From an uncultured Clostridia bacterium (GTDB taxonomy: Bacteria; Aerophobota; Aerophobia; Aerophobales; B3-G15): a DNA stretch of 64,000 nt. The stretch lies in the NCBI GenBank assembly GCA_964482715.1, contig CAYZYX010000003.1, positions 1 through 64,000 on the forward strand. The letters are read 5' to 3'. Positions within the stretch are counted from its first letter, which is position 1; each line of letters begins with the position of its first letter. Below the pieces are notes generated by a model that saw only the letters and a list, made by a program, of their open reading frames with translations, made no database searches and had not been told where the DNA came from. A program made the translations under genes and the position numbers. Shown here piece after piece: positions 34,609 to 43,951 of the stretch.

Positions 34609-36037
34609 TCCTCTTTTAGAGAAAGTAGAGGAAACTATCCGTAAATTTGACATGTTTTGTATTGGAAGTAAGATAGTGGTGGGAATATCTGGGGGACCAG
34701 ATTCCACTGTTCTTTTGCATGTTCTTTATCATCTTCGGGAAAGATTTAAAATCAAAATCCGAGCTGCTTATCTTAACCATTGTCTGAGAGGAGAAGAAGT
34801 GGAAAGGGAAAAAGAGTGGGTCAAGGATTTTACTCGTAAACTCGGTGTTCCCCTCATATGTGACTGCATAGACGTGGCACTTCTGGCAAAAGAAAAAAGG
34901 ATGAGTTTAGAATCCGCAGCTCGAGAAGCGAGATACGGATTTTTGGAACATGTAGCTAACCAGGTGGGAGCAAGCCGTATTGCTGTGGGACATACAGCCT
35001 CCGATCAAGCAGAAACTCTTTTAATGAGACTCGTAAGAGGTAGCGGGCTGGATGGACTGGCAGGTATCCCTCCAGTGAGAGGTAGGGTTGTACGGCCTAT
35101 GATTGAAGTATTCAGATGGGAAGTGGAAGAATACTGTCAGAGACACAATTTAACTCCCAGAGAGGATTCAACCAACAGAGATGTATCTTTTTTTCGTAAT
35201 TCAATCAGGCTCGAGCTTATTCCTTATCTTACAAAGCGGTACAATCCAAAATTACCGGAAATTTTAGTTCAAACTACCGATATTCTTCGTGTTGATAAGG
35301 AGTTTTTACAAGAACTTGCTTCAAAAGCGGAAGAGAAAGTTCTTAAGAGAAGGAATGATAAAATCTTAATTATGGATATTAAAACTTTATCTCGATTTCA
35401 TCTCTCTCTTAAGCGCAGACTGATACGAAATGCAATTGAGAGGTTAAAAGGAAATCTTCGAGGAATCACCTATGATCACATTAATGATGTTATTAAATTG
35501 CTGGGATGTAAAGGCACAAAGATTTTAAATTTACCCGAAGATGTCAGGGTTATTAAACAATATGATGAGCTTATCCTGAGTCAACAGGGATTTTTTGCAC
35601 CTTCGTTTTTCAGCTTTCTTGAAATTCCCGGCAAAACAGAAATCCCCCAGCTTAACCTCTCTTTTGAGACGGAAATTACAACTGAAGTCCCGGTGGAGTT
35701 TTCATCTGATCCTTTTGAAGTTTACTTTGATTTTGATAAACTTCCTAAACCTTTATTTATACGCCCAAGGAAAGAAGGAGACAGATTTGTGCCTCTGGGA
35801 ATGAAGGAAGAAAAAAAACTGAAAAAGTTTTTCATAGATGCAAAAGTTCCTCTTGTCCAGAGAGATAAAGTGCCCATATTGGTTGGTGGTGATAAAATAT
35901 TATGGGTAGTGGGTTATAGAATAGATGAGAGGTTCAAAGTTGATCCTACCACGAAGAAAGTTTTAAAGACAAGGGTGCTTCGAAATGTCAGAACGTCAAG
36001 CACAGATAAACCGGAAAACAAGGGAAACCGAAGTTAG
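34598..36037 (+). CDS. tilS: tRNA(Ile)-lysidine synthetase
   Basis: SGGPDS PP-loop, AREARY, GHTASDQAET, RNSIR, C-terminal GDRF...KKLKKFFID. Confidence 0.96.
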   Translation: MRDDPLLEKVEETIRKFDMFCIGSKIVVGISGGPDSTVLLHVLYHLRERFKIKIRAAYLNHCLRGEEVEREKEWVKDFTRKLGVPLICDCIDVALLAKEKRMSLESAAREARYGFLEHVANQVGASRIAVGHTASDQAETLLMRLVRGSGLDGLAGIPPVRGRVVRPMIEVFRWEVEEYCQRHNLTPREDSTNRDVSFFRNSIRLELIPYLTKRYNPKLPEILVQTTDILRVDKEFLQELASKAEEKVLKRRNDKILIMDIKTLSRFHLSLKRRLIRNAIERLKGNLRGITYDHINDVIKLLGCKGTKILNLPEDVRVIKQYDELILSQQGFFAPSFFSFLEIPGKTEIPQLNLSFETEITTEVPVEFSSDPFEVYFDFDKLPKPLFIRPRKEGDRFVPLGMKEEKKLKKFFIDAKVPLVQRDKVPILVGGDKILWVVGYRIDERFKVDPTTKKVLKTRVLRNVRTSSTDKPENKGNRS

Positions 36038-36578
36038 CGTCTATCTCAATATTGATGGAAGTGGGTACTCGGAAATTAATACCGGATATCCTTTTTTTGA
36101 CCATATGTTAGAACTTTTTTGCTGGCATGGATTTTTTGATTTGAGGATCAAAGCACAGGGTGACATTGAAGTTGATAAACACCATGTTGTAGAAGATGTA
36201 GGTATATGTCTGGGAAAGGCATTTTCCCGGGCCATCAAGGATAAAAAAGGTATTAAAAGATATGGATACTCCGTAGTTCCTATGGATGAAGTTTTAATTC
36301 AATGTGCAGTTGACATAAGTGGAAGACCACTTTTAGTTTTCAACAGAGAGGAAGAATGGGTTATAGATAAAATAGGAGAGTCCTTTAGAGATTTTTTTAG
36401 AGGTTTTTGTAATCATTCAGGGGTAACCCTGCATATTATTGTTTACTCTGGCCAGGGACGTCATCACATTTTAGAGGGAATTTTTAAATCTTTGGCTCTA
36501 TGTCTTGATCAAGCTACTTCAATTGAGCCCCGAAGAGAAGGTTCTCCTTCCACTAAGGGTAAAATAGAAGAAGTATAG
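35985..36578 (+). CDS. hisB: Imidazoleglycerol-phosphate dehydratase
   Basis: RKTRETE, FFDHML, HHVVEDVG, PMDE, HHILE, PSTKG. Confidence 0.95.
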   Translation: MSERQAQINRKTRETEVSVYLNIDGSGYSEINTGYPFFDHMLELFCWHGFFDLRIKAQGDIEVDKHHVVEDVGICLGKAFSRAIKDKKGIKRYGYSVVPMDEVLIQCAVDISGRPLLVFNREEEWVIDKIGESFRDFFRGFCNHSGVTLHIIVYSGQGRHHILEGIFKSLALCLDQATSIEPRREGSPSTKGKIEEV

Positions 36579-36587
36579 AGGAAAAAG

Positions 36588-37037
36588 GTGCTTGCTGTAG
36601 TTCAGAGAGTAAGTTCAGCTTGTTGCATCGTTGGAGAAGAAATAGTGGGTCGGATAGGTAAAGGAATGGTTGTTTTACTTGCTGTGGGTAGAAATGATGG
36701 TTTAGACCAGGTCCGGTGGATGGCAAAGAAAATAGCCAATTTAAGGATCTTTGAAGATAAAAATGGAAAAATGAACCTCTCTTTACTTCAGATAAGAGGA
36801 GAAATACTACTTGTCCCGCAATTCACTCTTTATGGGGATTGCAGCAAGGGATACCGACCCAGTTTTACTGAAGCAGCTCCCCCTGAGATGGCAGAGAAGC
36901 TCTTTTTACAGGTAAAAAAGTGTTTATTGGATTTCAAGATAAAAATTATCAGTGGAATATTTGGTGCCCGAATGAAAATAAAACTCACAAATGAAGGACC
37001 TGTTACTTTAATTATATCTTCTAAAAACGAAAAATAA
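36588..37037 (+). CDS. dtd: D-aminoacyl-tRNA deacylase
   Basis: AVVQRV, LRIFED, QFTLYGD, RPSF, FGA.M, NEGPVT. Confidence 0.96.
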   Translation: MLAVVQRVSSACCIVGEEIVGRIGKGMVVLLAVGRNDGLDQVRWMAKKIANLRIFEDKNGKMNLSLLQIRGEILLVPQFTLYGDCSKGYRPSFTEAAPPEMAEKLFLQVKKCLLDFKIKIISGIFGARMKIKLTNEGPVTLIISSKNEK

Positions 37038-37048
37038 ATCTCTGGAAG

Positions 37049-38122
37049 ATGACTATGGCTAAAACAACTGTCGGATTAAAGATTGGTTCAACTTCCATAA
37101 AATTTGTTGAACTGGTGCATTTAAGGGATGGTTGTAAGTTGAGGAAAATAGGGATAGAGGAATTTCCTCTTTCAGAGAAAACCCAGGGTTACCTTAACAA
37201 TGTCAATTTTATTGCTGAAAAGTTGAAAGAGATTATTACCACCCATAAGATAAACTCACACAAGATAGTCAGTGGGGTGGAAGGTGAGTCAGTGGTAGTG
37301 AGAATTATAAGGGTTCCTCAAATGAAGGACAGCGAACTTCGAAGAGCAATAAGATGGGAGGCAGAAGAGCAAATCCCTTATCCCATGGATGATGTCTCAC
37401 TTGGATATCACATTTTAAAGAAGAATTTACTGGGGGCTCGAGGTAGAGAAGTAGCTGTACTTATCGTGGGAGTAAAAAAACAAAGCATTGATGAGCATCT
37501 TAATATTTTTCAGCAGATAGGTCTTACTCCCGCAATTGTTGATGTTAATTCTCTTGCTCTTTACAATATAGTTAAAAATAGTAGTATAGAAATATCCGAA
37601 GGAACCGCCCTTTTAAATATAGGTCATCGTGTTACCAATCTGGTTATTACGGCCGAAGATTTTCCTTTCATGGTTAGAGATATTAATTTTGGTGGGGAGA
37701 ACATCACTCAGAATTTGATGAGGAGATGGGGTATATCTTATGTAGAGGCCGAGAAACTCAAAAAAACTCGGGGAATGATCAGGTTTGATTTAGAGACTGC
37801 AAGTATAGAGGAGAAAGAGATGAGTCGAATTATCACGGATTCTCTGGAAGAACTCATTAAGGAAATAGTGCATTCTTTTGAGTATTTTGCTTCCAACAGA
37901 AAAGGTGCTCTTGTTCAAAAGGTGATTCTATCGGGAGGATGTTCTCTCATTAAAAATCTGGATAAATTTTTATCTCAGGAACTTGAAATCCCGGTTCAAA
38001 AAATAAATCCTTTCAGCAATGTAAGCTATTCAAGAGATAAGTTTGCCCAGTTTTTACCTTCTCTGGTCCCGCTTTTTGCTGTACCAGCAGGTTTAGCATT
38101 GAGGGAGATATCCTGGACATGA
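37049..38122 (+). CDS. pilM: Type IV pilus assembly protein PilM (actin-like)
   Basis: GLKIGSTSIK, WEAEEQIPY, LLNIGH, FGGENIT, LSGG, PV..INPF, GLALR. Confidence 0.92.
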   Translation: MTMAKTTVGLKIGSTSIKFVELVHLRDGCKLRKIGIEEFPLSEKTQGYLNNVNFIAEKLKEIITTHKINSHKIVSGVEGESVVVRIIRVPQMKDSELRRAIRWEAEEQIPYPMDDVSLGYHILKKNLLGARGREVAVLIVGVKKQSIDEHLNIFQQIGLTPAIVDVNSLALYNIVKNSSIEISEGTALLNIGHRVTNLVITAEDFPFMVRDINFGGENITQNLMRRWGISYVEAEKLKKTRGMIRFDLETASIEEKEMSRIITDSLEELIKEIVHSFEYFASNRKGALVQKVILSGGCSLIKNLDKFLSQELEIPVQKINPFSNVSYSRDKFAQFLPSLVPLFAVPAGLALREISWT

Positions 38123-38694
38123 TTGAGATTAATCTTTTACCACCAGAGATAATTCAACAGAGAAAAAAAAGAGATTTTATCATATTTGTGGGAATATGTG
38201 TAGCTGTGGCAATAAGTATTTGTTATCTTCTTTATCTTTCTTTAGCTCAAAGCATCTATCCTCTGGAGCAAAAATTAGAAGATATAAAAAGGCAGATTTC
38301 CCAATATCAACCCACCCTTAAAGAAATAGAAGAGACCAAAAAAGAAAATGCCGAGATAATGGCTCGATTTGATGCTTTCAGGCAGGTAGTGGAAAGACAG
38401 TCGTTTTGGCCTCGTCTATTATACGAGATTTATCGGGCACTTCCTGATACTTTATGGTTAAACGAGATTAAAACCAGTCAGGATGGTAAATTCGTAGAGA
38501 TCGAGGGAAATAGTTTAAACGAAACCATAGGTGTTGCACATTTTATCAATAACTTAAAAAAATCCGGGATTTTCTCAGATATTGAGTTTATTAAGTTCTC
38601 TCAGCATAAAATAGCGGATAAGCAGGCTATGCTTTTTAGATTAAGGTGTTTTCTGGGAAAAGAAAGACCAGTACCCGAAGGTTCTGCAAAATGA
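38119..38694 (+). CDS. pilN: Type IV pilus assembly protein PilN
   Basis: N-terminal INLLP motif, TM helix, coiled coil, LP..LWL. Confidence 0.9.
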   Translation: MIEINLLPPEIIQQRKKRDFIIFVGICVAVAISICYLLYLSLAQSIYPLEQKLEDIKRQISQYQPTLKEIEETKKENAEIMARFDAFRQVVERQSFWPRLLYEIYRALPDTLWLNEIKTSQDGKFVEIEGNSLNETIGVAHFINNLKKSGIFSDIEFIKFSQHKIADKQAMLFRLRCFLGKERPVPEGSAK

Positions 38695-39326
38695 GTATTT
38701 TCGATATGAAAGGTCGAGTAATGATAGGGGTGGCAATTTTCCTGGGGTTGTTACTGGTTTTTTATGTCATGGTTTATAAGCCCCAGATAATTCATAAAAA
38801 TAATCTTGAGATTAAAATCTCTCAGCAAAATAGAAGACTTCTTCAACTTAAAGAAAAGTACCGGGAACTTGAGCAGTTAAAAGAGGAAAATAAAAAAATT
38901 AAAAATAACCTTGCCGCTCTGGAAAGCAAGTTGAAGGAAGGAAGAGTGTCTTTCCTTTACGAGCTGGGATTTAGGGGAAAAATCTACGGAGTTGAATACC
39001 TGGAGATAACACCTTTATCTACAATAGAGGAGAAGTATTATCTTCGAACTCCGGTAAAAATGCATCTTTTTAGTAAATATCATAATTTTGGTATGTTGAT
39101 TTCCGACATGGCAAAAAAAGGGGGACTGGGGGCTTTTACCGTGGATAATGTACTTTTAAAATCCACCTCCAGAGAAGGGTACACAATTGAAGCCAGTCTT
39201 ATCCTTTCTCTTTACAGATATAAGGGGCTAACTTTCTATTCCAGTGAAACCGTAGCTACTTCTTTGAGTAATAAGATTTCCGGTTTAAAATCTTCTAAGA
39301 CTGGAGTTTTACGGAGAAAAAGATGA
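38691..39326 (+). CDS. pilO: Type IV pilus assembly protein PilO
   Basis: ATGA overlap with pilN; TM helix plus coiled coil; YY...PV and 'YHNFG' segments. Confidence 0.8.
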   Translation: MSIFDMKGRVMIGVAIFLGLLLVFYVMVYKPQIIHKNNLEIKISQQNRRLLQLKEKYRELEQLKEENKKIKNNLAALESKLKEGRVSFLYELGFRGKIYGVEYLEITPLSTIEEKYYLRTPVKMHLFSKYHNFGMLISDMAKKGGLGAFTVDNVLLKSTSREGYTIEASLILSLYRYKGLTFYSSETVATSLSNKISGLKSSKTGVLRRKR

Positions 39327-39769
39327 AGTTTTTAACGGTTTGTCTTTTGAGTTTATTCTTTTTTTCTTGCCTGGTTGAGACCAAAGTGTTTGCCCAGCCT
39401 GAAGAAGATTTTTCTCTGCCGGAAATATTTGAATACCCTGTAACTAAAGGTAGAGATCCCTTTGCTCCTCTTATAATTGAAAAAAAGAGGGTTGAAGAAA
39501 AAAAAGTAGTTATGCCAAAAGCTGAAGTCAAAGCTCAACCCGGGCCAGAAAAACTCCCTGTTATAACCCATTCTGAGTATAAGCTGATAGGTATTGTCTG
39601 GTATGGAGAAGAAGCTGCAGCTTTGATCAGAAAAAATGAAAAGACCTGGGTAGTAAAAGAAGGAATGGTTTTTAATGGTCTTAGTGTTGCAAGAATTGAG
39701 GGTGAAAAAGGAGAAGTTATTCTTCTGGGAAAAGATAAGATAATCAAATTAAATATGCTGGAGATTTAG
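39323..39769 (+). CDS. pilP: PilP-like protein
   Basis: Signal peptide, GRDPFAPL motif, LIGIVW..ALI..VKEG beta domain; position after pilO. Confidence 0.7.
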   Translation: MKFLTVCLLSLFFFSCLVETKVFAQPEEDFSLPEIFEYPVTKGRDPFAPLIIEKKRVEEKKVVMPKAEVKAQPGPEKLPVITHSEYKLIGIVWYGEEAAALIRKNEKTWVVKEGMVFNGLSVARIEGEKGEVILLGKDKIIKLNMLEI

Positions 39770-39770
39770 C

Positions 39771-40749
39771 ATGAAGATGAAGACCAATATTTTTTTGACT
39801 GGGGGGGCTTTTTTCTTTCTGGCATTTTTTTGCTTTTGCTTGTTAGCCGGAGCAGAAGAAATTCCACTGGAAAAGAAGGTGATATCTCTTGATTTTAAAG
39901 GTATTGATGTTCGAGATGCCCTGCGGCTGATTTCGGTCCAAAGTGGAGTAAACATAGTAGTTGAACCAGAAGTAGAGGGTAAAATCACTGCAAGATTTGA
40001 AGAGCCTGTCCCTTTACTTGAGGCACTTTCCATAATCCTTTCCTCTGTTGACTGCATCTACCAGAAAGAGGACAANNNNNNNNNNNNNNNNNNNNNNNNN
40101 NNNNNNNNNNNNNNNNNNNNNNNNNNNNNNNNNNNNNNNNNNNNNNNNNNNNNNNNNNNNNNNNNNNNNNNNNNNAGAGGATGCTCCCTTTTACCTTGAC
40201 AGGGTAAAAGAGCTTGTAAAAGAGGAAGATGTGCTGGATAAGCAAATTATGACCAAAAGTTATAACTTACTTTATCTATCACCACTTGAGGCTAAAACTC
40301 TTTTAGAGACAAAGCTTTCCAGATATGGAAGGGTGATTATCCCTGTAATCCCTGAAGAAAAAAGTGAAAACAAAGAGGAAATTGTTGTTATTCCTCAGGA
40401 AAATCCTGAGGAAAAGCAAGAAGTTGAAATAAAGTCATCTCAATCCAGTTCTTCTTTAGGCCTTGGACCAGTCATATATGTTACCGAGTTAAAGAAGAAT
40501 TTTCCCCAGATTGACAAGATAATTGAGGATTTTAATTCTGAACAGTGGGCTTCAAAAATGGTTACCCGTACTTTTTACTTAAAGGAGGGTTCCCTGGAAA
40601 GAATAGCTCTTGCCATTGCCAATGTACTAGGTGTACCTCCCGAAAAAATTGAAGGAATCAATTTAAAAAAGGTAAGCTGGATGGAGATGCAACTTACCTC
40701 TCCTTCTATTGATCTGGGAAATATTGGAGCAGTGGGTAAAAAACCCTGA
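39771..40749 (+). CDS. Secretin N-terminal part (signal peptide, N0/STN and NolW-like N-domains), interrupted by the assembly gap; no secretin barrel visible
   Basis: Before the gap ISLDFKGIDVRDALRLISVQSGVNIVV; after it EDAPFYLDRV..MTKSYNLLYLSP..LSRYG and VTRTFYLK; TGA 40747-40749; continuity across the gap is assumed. Confidence 0.7.
40076..40175. other. Assembly gap (100 N, true length unknown)
   Basis: Run of exactly 100 N. Confidence 0.99.
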
Positions 40750-40762
40750 TTGGGAGTGATCC

Positions 40763-43063
40763 ATGAAAAAACCAAAAATTAAAACACTTATTAACTTAAC
40801 AGGTTTTGCCATTTTATTTTTCTGGAGCGTTATGGTTTTTGCCGAGCCTGTTGTCTGGGTTGATCCAGCTACAGGGAGGATTACCATTAAGGCACCCCGG
40901 GAGAAGATCAAAGAAGTTGAAGAGATAATTTCCCGTTTTCCAGCTCAGCCGCGCCAAATCGAAATTGAGGCCAGGATAATAGAAGTAAGCGAAGAGGTGA
41001 CTAAAAAATTTGGAACTTCGCTGGAGAGACTCACAGGTCTTGAAGTTCCTGTGGGAACGACAGGAGAAGGTTCAAAGATTGCTTTTGGCCCCAAAACCTT
41101 AACCGAACTGGAGGAGGGAAAAGGAGCTCTTGAGTTTAATTTTTATCGTCTCACTGCGGAAGAAAGATTTGAAATGATTTTAAACATGCTTTTAACTGAG
41201 GGGAAAGCCAGAGTTTTATCCTCTCCCAGGGTTTCCACACTTTCAGGGGAAGTTGCCGGGATATACGTGACCACAGAGATCCCCTACCTTGCCAGTATTA
41301 CCTACAGAATAGTAGGAGAAAAGGAGATTCCGGAAGAGCATTATGAATATGCCACGGTGGGGATCGTTCTTCAGGTTCTTCCACGAATAGTAGGTGAAGA
41401 TCTGGTGGAAATGTCTGTTATTCCTCTGGTTGGTAATTACGAAATCAGTCCGGAATTTGGCGCTCAACACCCTATATTTAAGCGCCAGATTTCTCCCACC
41501 AATGTAACCGTGAAAGATGGAGAATCTCTGGTCATAGGAGGACTTATAACCAGAGATAAATCAAAAAGAGTAATAGGGCTTCCCGTTCTTTCTCATCTAC
41601 CTGTGCTGGGAGGACTTTTCCGAAGTCAGGTAGAAATCATAAAAGAAAAAAGTCTTCTCATAACAGTTAAACCGCATATACTAAAACCAAGAGAGATAAA
41701 AGGAAGAGTCAAAAGGATTTTTCATTTAAAGTATGGTCTGGCATCTGAAGTTGCGGGGCAGGTAAGAGAGCTTCTCTCTTCACAGGGTTCAATTGAAGTA
41801 AATCCCAAGGAAGCTCCTCCCAATTCCATTCTGGTACGAGACCTTGAAGATAGAATCAGGGTTATTCAATCTTTCCTGAATCAAACAGGGACTTTTCAGG
41901 CTCAGAGACGACAGAAAAAATACCCTCTTGTATATACAACACTTGAAGAGGCTATGGTTACAGTGGAGAAGCTTTTATCTAAACACGGTTCTGTTAGAAT
42001 GGAAGAAGGAAATGTGCTGATAGTGGAAGACGGGGCTTACCAGATTTCCCTGATTGATGAAGCAATACGCGCCCTGGAAAGGCACAATTCTTTTCCTCAG
42101 ATAAAGACTTTTAACCTCAAGTTTGTTGCTGACAAACAGGCTGTAAGAGAGATTCTTCCTCTTCTTTCCCCTCGAGGATCCTGTAAAATTACAAAAGAGC
42201 GAGTTTTACTGGTTGAGGACAACAACTGGGTTATCCAAAAAGTTAGTGAGAAACTTAAGGAACTGGATACGTTTGATAGCCAAAAAGAAACAAAAGTCTA
42301 TTCTTTAAAAAATGAAATTGTCTCGGAACTTTTAAAATCAGCCAGTTTTCAGCAAGTAGTAAAAGCAGAGCTTAGTCCTCAGTGCAAGATAATACCCAGA
42401 GAAGAAACTAATGAACTTTTGATTACAGAGGTAAACTGGAAACAGAAAAAGGTGAAAGAGATTGTTAAGAGTTTTGACACCTACAGAAAGGTAGAAGCTA
42501 CTTATGAGGTAAAATTCTGGTTTGCTTCTTCATTAAAATCCAAGTTAACTCCTCTTCTCACTCCACAAGGCGAGATGGTGGTTGACGAAGACAAAAATTC
42601 ACTTATAATAAAAGACTCACCTTACCGAATAAAGAAGATAGGCGATGAAATAAAAAAATTGGATCGGTTTGAGCTGGTTAAATCGGAAGAAAGGTTGACT
42701 GTTCAGTACTTACCTTTAGAAAAAGCAATACAAATAGCAAGAGAACAGATGTCTTCACAGGGAAAAATTTTAAAGATAGAAAAAAAGAGAAGAAGTTTTA
42801 CAATAGAGGAAGCCCCCTTTCCTTTACGTAAGATACGAGAAAAAATCGAGAAACTGGACACATTTGAGAAAAATAGAGTAGCTGAGTTTTACCTGTTAAA
42901 ACACGTTTCCCCTGAAGAAGCTGCACTGGTGGTAAGATATTTCCTCTCCCCACGGGGGAAAGTATATGCTGGAGAGGATCGTATCCTGGTAATTGATGCT
43001 CCTTACTATCAGAGACAAGTTGGTGAAGTAATAAGACTCATTGATCTTCCCAATTCAAAATAG
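40763..43063 (+). CDS. Atypical PilQ/GspD-family secretin: signal peptide, half N-domain, secretin core, then 7 NolW-like repeats
   Basis: QIEIEARIIEV, ARVLSSPRV, VGIVLQVLPRI, VKDGESLVIGGL, GLPVLSHLPVLGGLFR, LLITVKPHI; repeats of 'x(F/Y)xL...LSxxG...LxVxD'. Confidence 0.88.
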   Translation: MKKPKIKTLINLTGFAILFFWSVMVFAEPVVWVDPATGRITIKAPREKIKEVEEIISRFPAQPRQIEIEARIIEVSEEVTKKFGTSLERLTGLEVPVGTTGEGSKIAFGPKTLTELEEGKGALEFNFYRLTAEERFEMILNMLLTEGKARVLSSPRVSTLSGEVAGIYVTTEIPYLASITYRIVGEKEIPEEHYEYATVGIVLQVLPRIVGEDLVEMSVIPLVGNYEISPEFGAQHPIFKRQISPTNVTVKDGESLVIGGLITRDKSKRVIGLPVLSHLPVLGGLFRSQVEIIKEKSLLITVKPHILKPREIKGRVKRIFHLKYGLASEVAGQVRELLSSQGSIEVNPKEAPPNSILVRDLEDRIRVIQSFLNQTGTFQAQRRQKKYPLVYTTLEEAMVTVEKLLSKHGSVRMEEGNVLIVEDGAYQISLIDEAIRALERHNSFPQIKTFNLKFVADKQAVREILPLLSPRGSCKITKERVLLVEDNNWVIQKVSEKLKELDTFDSQKETKVYSLKNEIVSELLKSASFQQVVKAELSPQCKIIPREETNELLITEVNWKQKKVKEIVKSFDTYRKVEATYEVKFWFASSLKSKLTPLLTPQGEMVVDEDKNSLIIKDSPYRIKKIGDEIKKLDRFELVKSEERLTVQYLPLEKAIQIAREQMSSQGKILKIEKKRRSFTIEEAPFPLRKIREKIEKLDTFEKNRVAEFYLLKHVSPEEAALVVRYFLSPRGKVYAGEDRILVIDAPYYQRQVGEVIRLIDLPNSK

Positions 43064-43072
43064 AGGTTTATA

Positions 43073-43951
43073 ATGGAAATGAAAAAGTTGAAATTTGGTT
43101 TGCCCAAGGGAAGCCTGGAAAAAATGAGTCTTGAGTTATTTGAGCGAGCTGGGTACAAAATTACCCAAGAAGAAAGGTCTTACAATCTCTTTATTGATGA
43201 CGATGAAATTGAGCCCATGCTTATTCGCACTCAAGAAATTCCGCTTTATGTTGGAAAAGGCGTTCTTGATGCAGGTCTGGCTGGAAATGACTGGATTCTG
43301 GAGCGTAAGATCGAGGTGGTAAGGGTGAAGGAACTTCCCTATGCCAAACAGGGTTTGGGAAAAGTAAAGTGGGTACTGGCTGTTCCTCGGAATTCACCTA
43401 TCCAGAAAGTTGAGGATCTTGAAGGTGGAAGGCTGGCTACTGAACTTGTAGAAGTAACTAAAGATTATTTAAAAAAGAAGGGAATAAAAGCAGAAGTTGA
43501 ATTTTCCTGGGGAGCAACTGAAGTTAAGCCTCCTCACCTTGTAGATGCCATAGTTGAACTTACCGAGACGGGAAGATCTCTTCGGGCAAATAACCTTCGA
43601 ATAATAGATGTCGTTCTTGAATCAACCACCTGGCTTATAGCTAATCCCCTGGCCTGGCAGGATGAGTGGAAGAGAGAGAAGGTAAAAGCTCTGGCTATAC
43701 TTCTGGAGGGAGCAATTAATGGTCTCGGGAAAGTTGGTTTAAAATTAAATGTTTCCCAGGAAAATCTAAAGAAGGTCCTGAGGCTTTTACCCGCTCTTCG
43801 TCAGCCAACTATCTCTCAGTTAAGTGAAACGGGATGGTGGGCAGTAGAGACCATAGTAGATGAAAAACAGGCAAGGGAGCTCATTCCTAAGTTAAAAAAA
43901 GCCGGTGGGCAGGGTATAGTTGAATATTCACTACATAAAGTTGTCTATTGA
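43073..43951 (+). CDS. hisG: ATP phosphoribosyltransferase (long form)
   Basis: [36 protein letters not shown]-terminal regulatory domain. Confidence 0.95.

Follow-up and report, generated by a model that had tools for sequence, protein, structure and literature searches.

The N3 domain of secretins forms the ring beneath the barrel, and a central part in assembly is ascribed to it. The PilQ secretin of Thermus thermophilus is a single chain with domains N0-N5, in which extra N rings lengthen a channel of ~35 nm within a periplasm of ~70 nm, according to the accessible part of that report (PMC4463427). Two-gene secretins, cut differently from the one described here, are also already in print: in the portions available of two papers, the secretin of the rhizobial type III secretion system (T3SS) is carried by RhcC1 (NolW) and RhcC2, which are non-adjacent and of different origins, RhcC2 being Tad-derived with a BON domain (PMC3459982, PMC3574062). 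In the type IVb pilus of enteropathogenic Escherichia coli, a separate N0-like protein, BfpG, binds the secretin BfpB 1:1 near its N3 ring, and an N3 insertion of BfpB (residues 198-235) forms a functional, essential extra barrel, as stated in the excerpted text of that study (PMC12531336). Here we describe two adjacent genes, A and B, in a 64,000-nucleotide stretch of DNA (the window; assembly GCA_964482715.1, contig CAYZYX010000003.1, positions 1 to 64,000) from an uncultured bacterium of the Aerophobota. Sequence comparison provides good support for reading them as a conserved two-chain secretin, predicted to be cut inside N3. What is particular here is that the cut is fixed in the core pilus operon of a lineage, that N repeats follow the barrel and that N0 modules stand in tandem. 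The accessible text of a survey of type IV filament systems mentions no such split (PMC6668835), and searches of open-access main texts found no paper on this architecture and nothing relevant on Aerophobetes or Aerophobota with secretins or pili.

All features lie on the forward strand. Gene A, the stalk chain (39771..40749), begins with a signal-peptide-like leader of about 28 residues (39771..39854), recognized by sequence inspection and resembled by the leaders of full-length homologues. It continues with its first N0 domain (39879..40075; PF21305, E 6.9e-8; TIGR02515 N-terminal match, E 1.9e-11) and a scaffold gap of 100 N (40076..40175). Beyond its array of modules, each of one N0 and five N repeats, a further repeat is the last whole one of the chain (40243..40536); it carries an acidic, disordered insertion of ~40 residues (40345-40467), and AlphaFold2 (AF2) gives its folded parts a predicted local distance difference test score (pLDDT) of 83-94 and the acidic loop one of 24-27. 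The C-terminus of A then reads VTRTFYLKEGSLERIALAIANVLG, which holds the first half (beta1-alpha1) of a putative N3 (40558..40632), followed by a conserved 38-residue tail with a W-x-x-M ... G-x-x-G pattern (40633..40746), situated at the usual place of the variable N3 loop, and the stop codon TGA (40747-40749).

Gene B, the pore chain, starts with an ATG at 40763, 13 nt beyond the TGA of A, and its ribosome-binding site GGGAG (40752..40756) lies within this intergenic stretch. It encodes 766 residues and runs to 43063, so that the preliminary description of this DNA, which placed the end of the finding at 41000, left out most of it. A Sec-type leader of 27 residues, identified by hydropathy and ending in VFA (40763..40843; cleavage VFA/EP), precedes the second half (beta2-beta3-alpha2) of the putative N3, which forms the mature N-terminus or head (40844..40942). 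For both proteins, signal peptides were judged by hydropathy and by a cleavage pattern conserved in homologues. The secretin (double beta-barrel) domain follows (40943..41695), and seven whole N-domain (NolW-like) repeats stand 3' of it (41699..43048). The preliminary description had read the junction accurately, from the leader, N0 and half-repeat end of A through GGGAG and the VFA/EP leader to the half N domain and secretin core of B, and profile searches of both open reading frames agree with it, placing N0 in A (PF21305) and PF00263 and PF03958 in B. The secretin superfamily assignment of B is clear (PF00263, 119.1 bits vs a cut-off of 27.5; Foldseek matches to GspD, InvG and PilQ at E about 1e-10 to 1e-11), and its signal peptide, in a two-membrane cell, predicts the export expected of that superfamily. 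Searches of the ESM Atlas returned generic secretin clusters only.

The division into a terminated A and a separately exported B recurs in all 65 loci that extend far enough upstream, out of 74 fetched with an alignment of B; the nine left out are three distant Chitinimonas secretins and six contigs that start within B or shortly before it. There is overlap between these loci and the searched genomes, and the loci comprise 52 distinct sequences at <95%. They were found with alignment queries, a single window protein as query having given no match. Thus, the earlier claim of a secretin split after pilMNOP into two separately exported proteins holds across the related loci, and relatives with one continuous gene were not found. 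Gene A ends in TAG at 36 loci, TGA at 19 and TAA at 10, and the distance from its stop to the mature start of B ranges from 63 to 384 nt with variable frame (63 of the 66 loci scored by pattern). Three stop codons together with variable spacing and frame exclude a shared sequencing error or recoding; readthrough and frameshifting were rejected on the same variation. The leader of B, cited in the preliminary description as speaking against a frameshift, recurs in the family: a hydrophobic leader stands directly before the head in 58 of 59 members (56 by pattern, two by eye; 11-residue hydropathy 2.5-3.5), the remaining one being a truncated gene call. Conversely, no secretin domain, and hence no fused form, occurs among 39 long A homologues (364-2000 aa), and N0 (PF21305 or PF07660) is absent from all 59 B homologues.

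Orthologues of B are present in 23 of 30 genomes of the same family or order (41-62% identity, E<=1e-64) and a C-terminal piece in a 24th, while the six genomes without a match are 57-84% complete. The C-terminal 190 residues of A find a full match at 22 places in 21 genomes (its own and 20 of the 30) and none in 10 outside genomes; likewise, among the secretins examined at 14 loci of these outside genomes, none showed the N3 split. Named homologue records are Candidatus Aerophobetes or loosely labelled metagenome-assembled genomes. In a quick tree, the 16 sampled B cores form one clade (Shimodaira-Hasegawa-like approximate likelihood ratio test, 100) with no close unsplit sister, which points to one origin of the split.

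The position of the cut was examined with hhalign. The second half of N3 in 38 unsplit secretins is matched by the head of B at a probability of 95.7% (E 9e-9), and the head also aligns to N3 of ExeD (6i1x). The last segment of A takes the place expected of the next beta1, right after a whole repeat has ended in its final helix. On a whole-repeat profile of 62 columns, the half from A occupies columns 2-24 (P 0.008) and the head of B columns 28-57, so that jointly they make one domain; the two fragments are complementary, the match on the side of A being weak. Within the C-terminal region of A, the half is the most conserved segment (0.65 vs 0.45-0.52; tail 0.56). The ratio of nonsynonymous to synonymous substitution rates (dN/dS), from 17 disjoint pairs, is 0.20 for the half and 0.15 for the tail, with 0.46 for the acidic loop; from four pairs, it is 0.11 for the head and 0.19 for the core of B. 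Both halves are under purifying selection, and judged from sequence the secretin is functional. Modelled alone with AF2, they fold poorly (pLDDT 42-63 for the B head, 46-64 for the A half and 32-64 for the A half with tail), as against values near 90 for whole repeats. Conservation, a complementary register and poor folding of the isolated segments are the features to be expected under fragment complementation.

On this evidence, we give a probability of roughly 0.7 to the reading that A and B form the type IVa pilus secretin of Candidatus Aerophobetes as two Sec-exported chains, and that beta1-alpha1 of A and beta2-beta3-alpha2 of B together restore N3, thereby joining a long stack of rings to the pore. 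Several points weigh against it. The half in A is weakly N-like (P 0.037 against unsplit N3, besides the 0.008 against its own repeats), two of 100 column shuffles score as high, and Pfam makes no call on it. A disordered or vestigial segment would likewise be expected to have a low pLDDT in isolation. Being related and partly redundant, the loci record one origin and not 65 events, and no unsplit close relative was found that would show the ancestral join.

Unlikely, yet the best of the alternatives, is that A acts as a separate periplasmic adaptor in the manner of RhcC1, with its tail or whole repeats as the part that binds the alignment complex or the pore; the halves would then be conserved binding motifs, with no canonical N3. 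A barrel-less N-domain chain has been proposed as a linker in the case of RhcC1, as the accessible text has it (PMC3459982), the A half has diverged from the repeat consensus, to which it matches weakly, and the tail, being about as conserved as the half (0.56 vs 0.65), could be a real interface. Against such an adaptor stand remnants that cover complementary, non-overlapping parts of one domain profile and both keep amphipathic patterns under selection, and a beta2-beta3-alpha2 fragment has by itself no core and is predicted with low confidence alone. In the portions available of the rhizobial papers, the T3SS genes resemble the present pair in placing the N-domain part and the barrel part on two genes; unlike them, for which no within-domain cut is described there, A and B lie 13 nt apart and carry complementary N3 halves (PMC3459982, PMC3574062). 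Neither is B a Tad-derived BON barrel gene set in a T3SS locus away from its N gene: Pfam finds no BON match in B, and its RcpA match is weaker than those to GspD and PilQ.

The C-terminus of a secretin domain returns to the periplasmic foot near N3. The N3 of B might be completed from B itself, either in cis or through a domain swap: as in a circular permutation, the first of the C-terminal repeats would pair its beta1-alpha1 with the head, and A would dock on the displaced half. This course of the chain speaks for it, as does the conservation of the first C-terminal repeat, the highest in B (0.63), but we consider it quite improbable, given that AF2 folds all seven C-terminal repeats whole while the head stays at low confidence, and that all counted family members have whole repeat numbers; the predicted template modelling score of the B model is only 0.39, so that inter-domain packing is not resolved in it. 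A further alternative, that the split reflects a misassembly, gene decay or a single protein produced by readthrough or frameshifting, is largely refuted and of very low probability. Although gene A holds an assembly gap in the window and the organism is known solely from metagenomes, no expression data having been found, single indel-free contigs cross the A-B junction in two runs, X1 (which may be the source sample) and X2. The split with its three stop codons and mixed frames is found at every informative locus, a new signal peptide intervenes, and 11 of the 13 differences between strains in B are synonymous.

The gap in gene A, which the preliminary description rightly said to hide an unknown length of sequence, is a placeholder, all 12 gaps of the assembly being 100 N. 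A near-identical contig (L093, 99.87% to the window) closes it with 909 in-frame bases that encode five N repeats but no barrel; on this closure, the idea that the gap conceals a barrel or gene boundary was rejected, and at least 909 in-frame bases are missing. Taken at face value, this one contig gives gene A a length of 595 aa, a figure rejected as a probable collapse on the basis of contig depth. For this, contigs of four runs were mapped to L093, depth being a rough measure to which related strains may contribute. Over positions 1-1019 of L093, depth is 47-59 vs 12 in the flanks for run X1, 32-39 vs 8.5 for X2 and 12-16 vs 6 for X5, whereas the uneven flanks of X3 (6-37) give no clean copy number. 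In X1 and X2, a 220-nt loop contig at ~3x flank depth joins position 1019 to position 1, implying a module of 1,179 nt, i.e., 393 codons or residues (N0 and five repeats). The copy number is most likely about four for both X1 and X2, and about two for X5. The fourfold depth together with the loop contig indicates that the L093 block is a collapsed tandem array and that A has about 1,770 residues; by arithmetic, four copies would give about 1,770 aa with four N0 and 21 whole N domains, and the gap most likely stands for ~4 tandem copies of the module. The unit is borne out by relatives assembled across the array: N0 recurs each 391-395 aa, the DNA periods are 1,173-1,185 nt, with an identity of 80-99.5%, and L083 has three copies or more. 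The lengths of A homologues in databases (~460-1,200 aa) may often be collapsed too, and collapsed assemblies understate the length of gene A.

At the other end of the system, the final ~450 residues of B match Secretin_N (PF03958, 98 bits, five stretches), and AF2 models them as seven whole beta-alpha-beta-beta-alpha units (pLDDT about 83-94). Among 58 B homologues, the number of post-barrel repeats is three (30 proteins), five (6), six (3) or seven (19); contig ends may have shortened some of these. Repeats after the barrel are absent from all 92 other barrel-bearing secretins examined, which are search matches and not a random sample. Neither these repeats nor tandem N0 modules were found in the other secretins examined or in the literature searches. 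The earlier picture of a two-chain secretin cut inside N3 thus stands as to the conserved split and falls short in lacking both the C-terminal repeats of B and the tandem N0+5N modules of A.

A, the periplasmic N-domain stack, and B, the barrel with its C-terminal N repeats, are both predicted to be exported by Sec. In the periplasm, if N3 is indeed rebuilt from two chains, the A half would fold onto the B half to restore the N3 ring under the barrel, which would tie one stalk chain to each pore subunit, and the tail of A, at the usual N3 loop site, would probably add a contact to B or line the lumen. The N0 domains of A would dock on PilP/PilMNO, as is known in other PilQ systems. Recombination among the near-identical 393-residue modules could lengthen or shorten the stalk and leave the pore chain untouched. 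In the weakest step, the repeats of B would leave the barrel at its periplasmic foot and probably support the junction from the outer side. A more tentative proposal, which we regard as possible but doubtful, holds that a constant pore chain is clipped through the rebuilt N3 to an exchangeable stalk, whose length would follow the N0+5N copy number (~2-4 among populations of one species) and be retunable to envelope width by recombination, each internal N0 offering a PilP docking level and the repeats of B a second, outer wall. A lineage-wide natural cut in N3 would imply that periplasmic stack and pore can be made and exported separately and then joined. The cut makes it testable how N3 templates oligomerization and by what means the channel is fitted in length to the periplasm, and the architecture predicts a wide or variable periplasm in this uncultured phylum.

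Compared with type IVa PilQ (TIGR02515; PDB 6w6m, 6ve2, 4av2, 3jc8), A and B are likewise the last genes of a pilMNOP operon, with PilT-like ATPases in the genome, and over the two chains N0, N-type ring domains and a secretin barrel are all present. Unlike it, they are two chains cut inside N3, N0 is repeated within a stalk of 4 to about 20 N repeats, and repeats follow the barrel. AMIN has no match in Pfam scans of A and B. In a canonical single-chain PilQ or GspD, a whole N3 directly precedes the barrel and N0 belongs to the barrel chain; B has only beta2-beta3-alpha2, N0 is in A, and the scores of B stay under the cut-offs of TIGR02515 (180.4; cut-off 284.35) and of the GspD model (234.6; cut-off 351.35). 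The pair works as a type IVa PilQ does, without being a canonical member of that group. Extra N-domain rings are shared with the Thermus protein as far as the accessible report describes it, but there they belong to one chain of six domains, whereas A is a separate stack chain of tandem modules in variable number; by analogy, its modules may lengthen the channel on a larger, adjustable scale (PMC4463427). BfpB, in the excerpted text, is a whole lipoprotein secretin with an intact N3 and BfpG an accessory single domain, unlike A, which would supply the missing part of the secretin; the N3 insertion of BfpB is a possible model, again by analogy, for the tail of A (PMC12531336). Very long N-repeat stacks also occur in giant multi-repeat secretins of 1,200-5,300 aa (P0182-P0225), which differ from A and B in being single chains with a C-terminal barrel; long matches similar to them carry Planctomycetaceae names.

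The alignment-complex genes pilM, pilN, pilO and pilP (37049..39769), assigned by Pfam and open reading frames, lie directly 5' of gene A and touch or overlap one another. PilM_2 (3e-55), PilN (2e-12) and PilO (2e-11) pass the Pfam cut-off, and PilP (E 0.003) falls under it. Typical PilP is a lipoprotein; relatives of the PilP-like protein (window:39323-39769) lack a conserved cysteine after the leader, so that it is probably not one. In most relatives inspected, the pilMNOP-A-B block is flanked by the same housekeeping genes, which we take from their sequences to be hisB/dtd-like (35985-37037) and hisG-like (43073-43951), suggesting a core, vertically inherited locus. A promoter and terminator scan gave counts at chance level (19 vs 15.9 and 7 vs 8.3, respectively), with none between A and B. 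Gene B is the only secretin found in the host genome (94.7% complete), which also encodes a PilB/GspE-type ATPase adjoining PilC, two PilT-like ATPases, four pilin-leader genes and ComEC. The PilB and GspE models score about equally on the extension ATPase, and of the PilT-like matches one stretch is over the cut-off and the second, partial one is under it. PilB, PilC, PilT and pilins in the genome, with the position after pilMNOP, make up a type IVa PilQ context, and Omp85 and LpxC mark a two-membrane cell. One related genome carries two A-B pairs (G027:C30 and G027:C97); its contamination is 4%, and possibly two strains are represented.

Some further observations concern the C-terminus of A. 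Its last 190 residues are unrecognized by Pfam and NCBIfam, a GRHL1_C match (E 0.02) being regarded as chance, and Foldseek gives their model no match at E<=0.001, the top ten rows being secretin N domains. G160, W168 and G184 of the tail are invariant across 52 sequences; modelled alone, tail residues 165-190 have a pLDDT under 50. Altered tails are found at L133:1-612 and L139:3-611, one shortened and one with a different Gly-rich middle, both keeping the Trp and the split. P0174, a 707-aa protein on one 8.4-kb contig, is A-like, with N0, eight repeats and a half repeat, and has a Gly-rich end where the conserved tail would stand. Searches with its C-terminus gave no homologues, and a search through it for an unsplit ancestor returned only P0174 itself among proteins of 388-1238 aa; the protein may represent a variant, or else an unsplit relative that is truncated.

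Other secretin arrangements were met along the way. Outside the phylum, a 264-aa secretin (L154:3847-4638, genome G038) passes directly from signal peptide to barrel, with no N domain. In several Aerophobetes genomes, a second pil-like locus has a gene of ~260 aa 5' of an unsplit secretin (L053:4692-5471, L054:1894-2676, L055:2350-3078, L056:2436-3227, L057:5180-5965, L059:4854-5642 and L060:3872-4765); by Pfam on two of them, these genes encode N0, one N domain and a C-terminal T2SSB/PilP-like piece. Four loci (L050, L051, L052 and L058) carry a tandem pair of whole secretin genes that overlap or are separated by a few bases, the first with two N0 domains (Pfam, L052) and the second with a long C-terminal extension; their products are possibly hetero-oligomeric.

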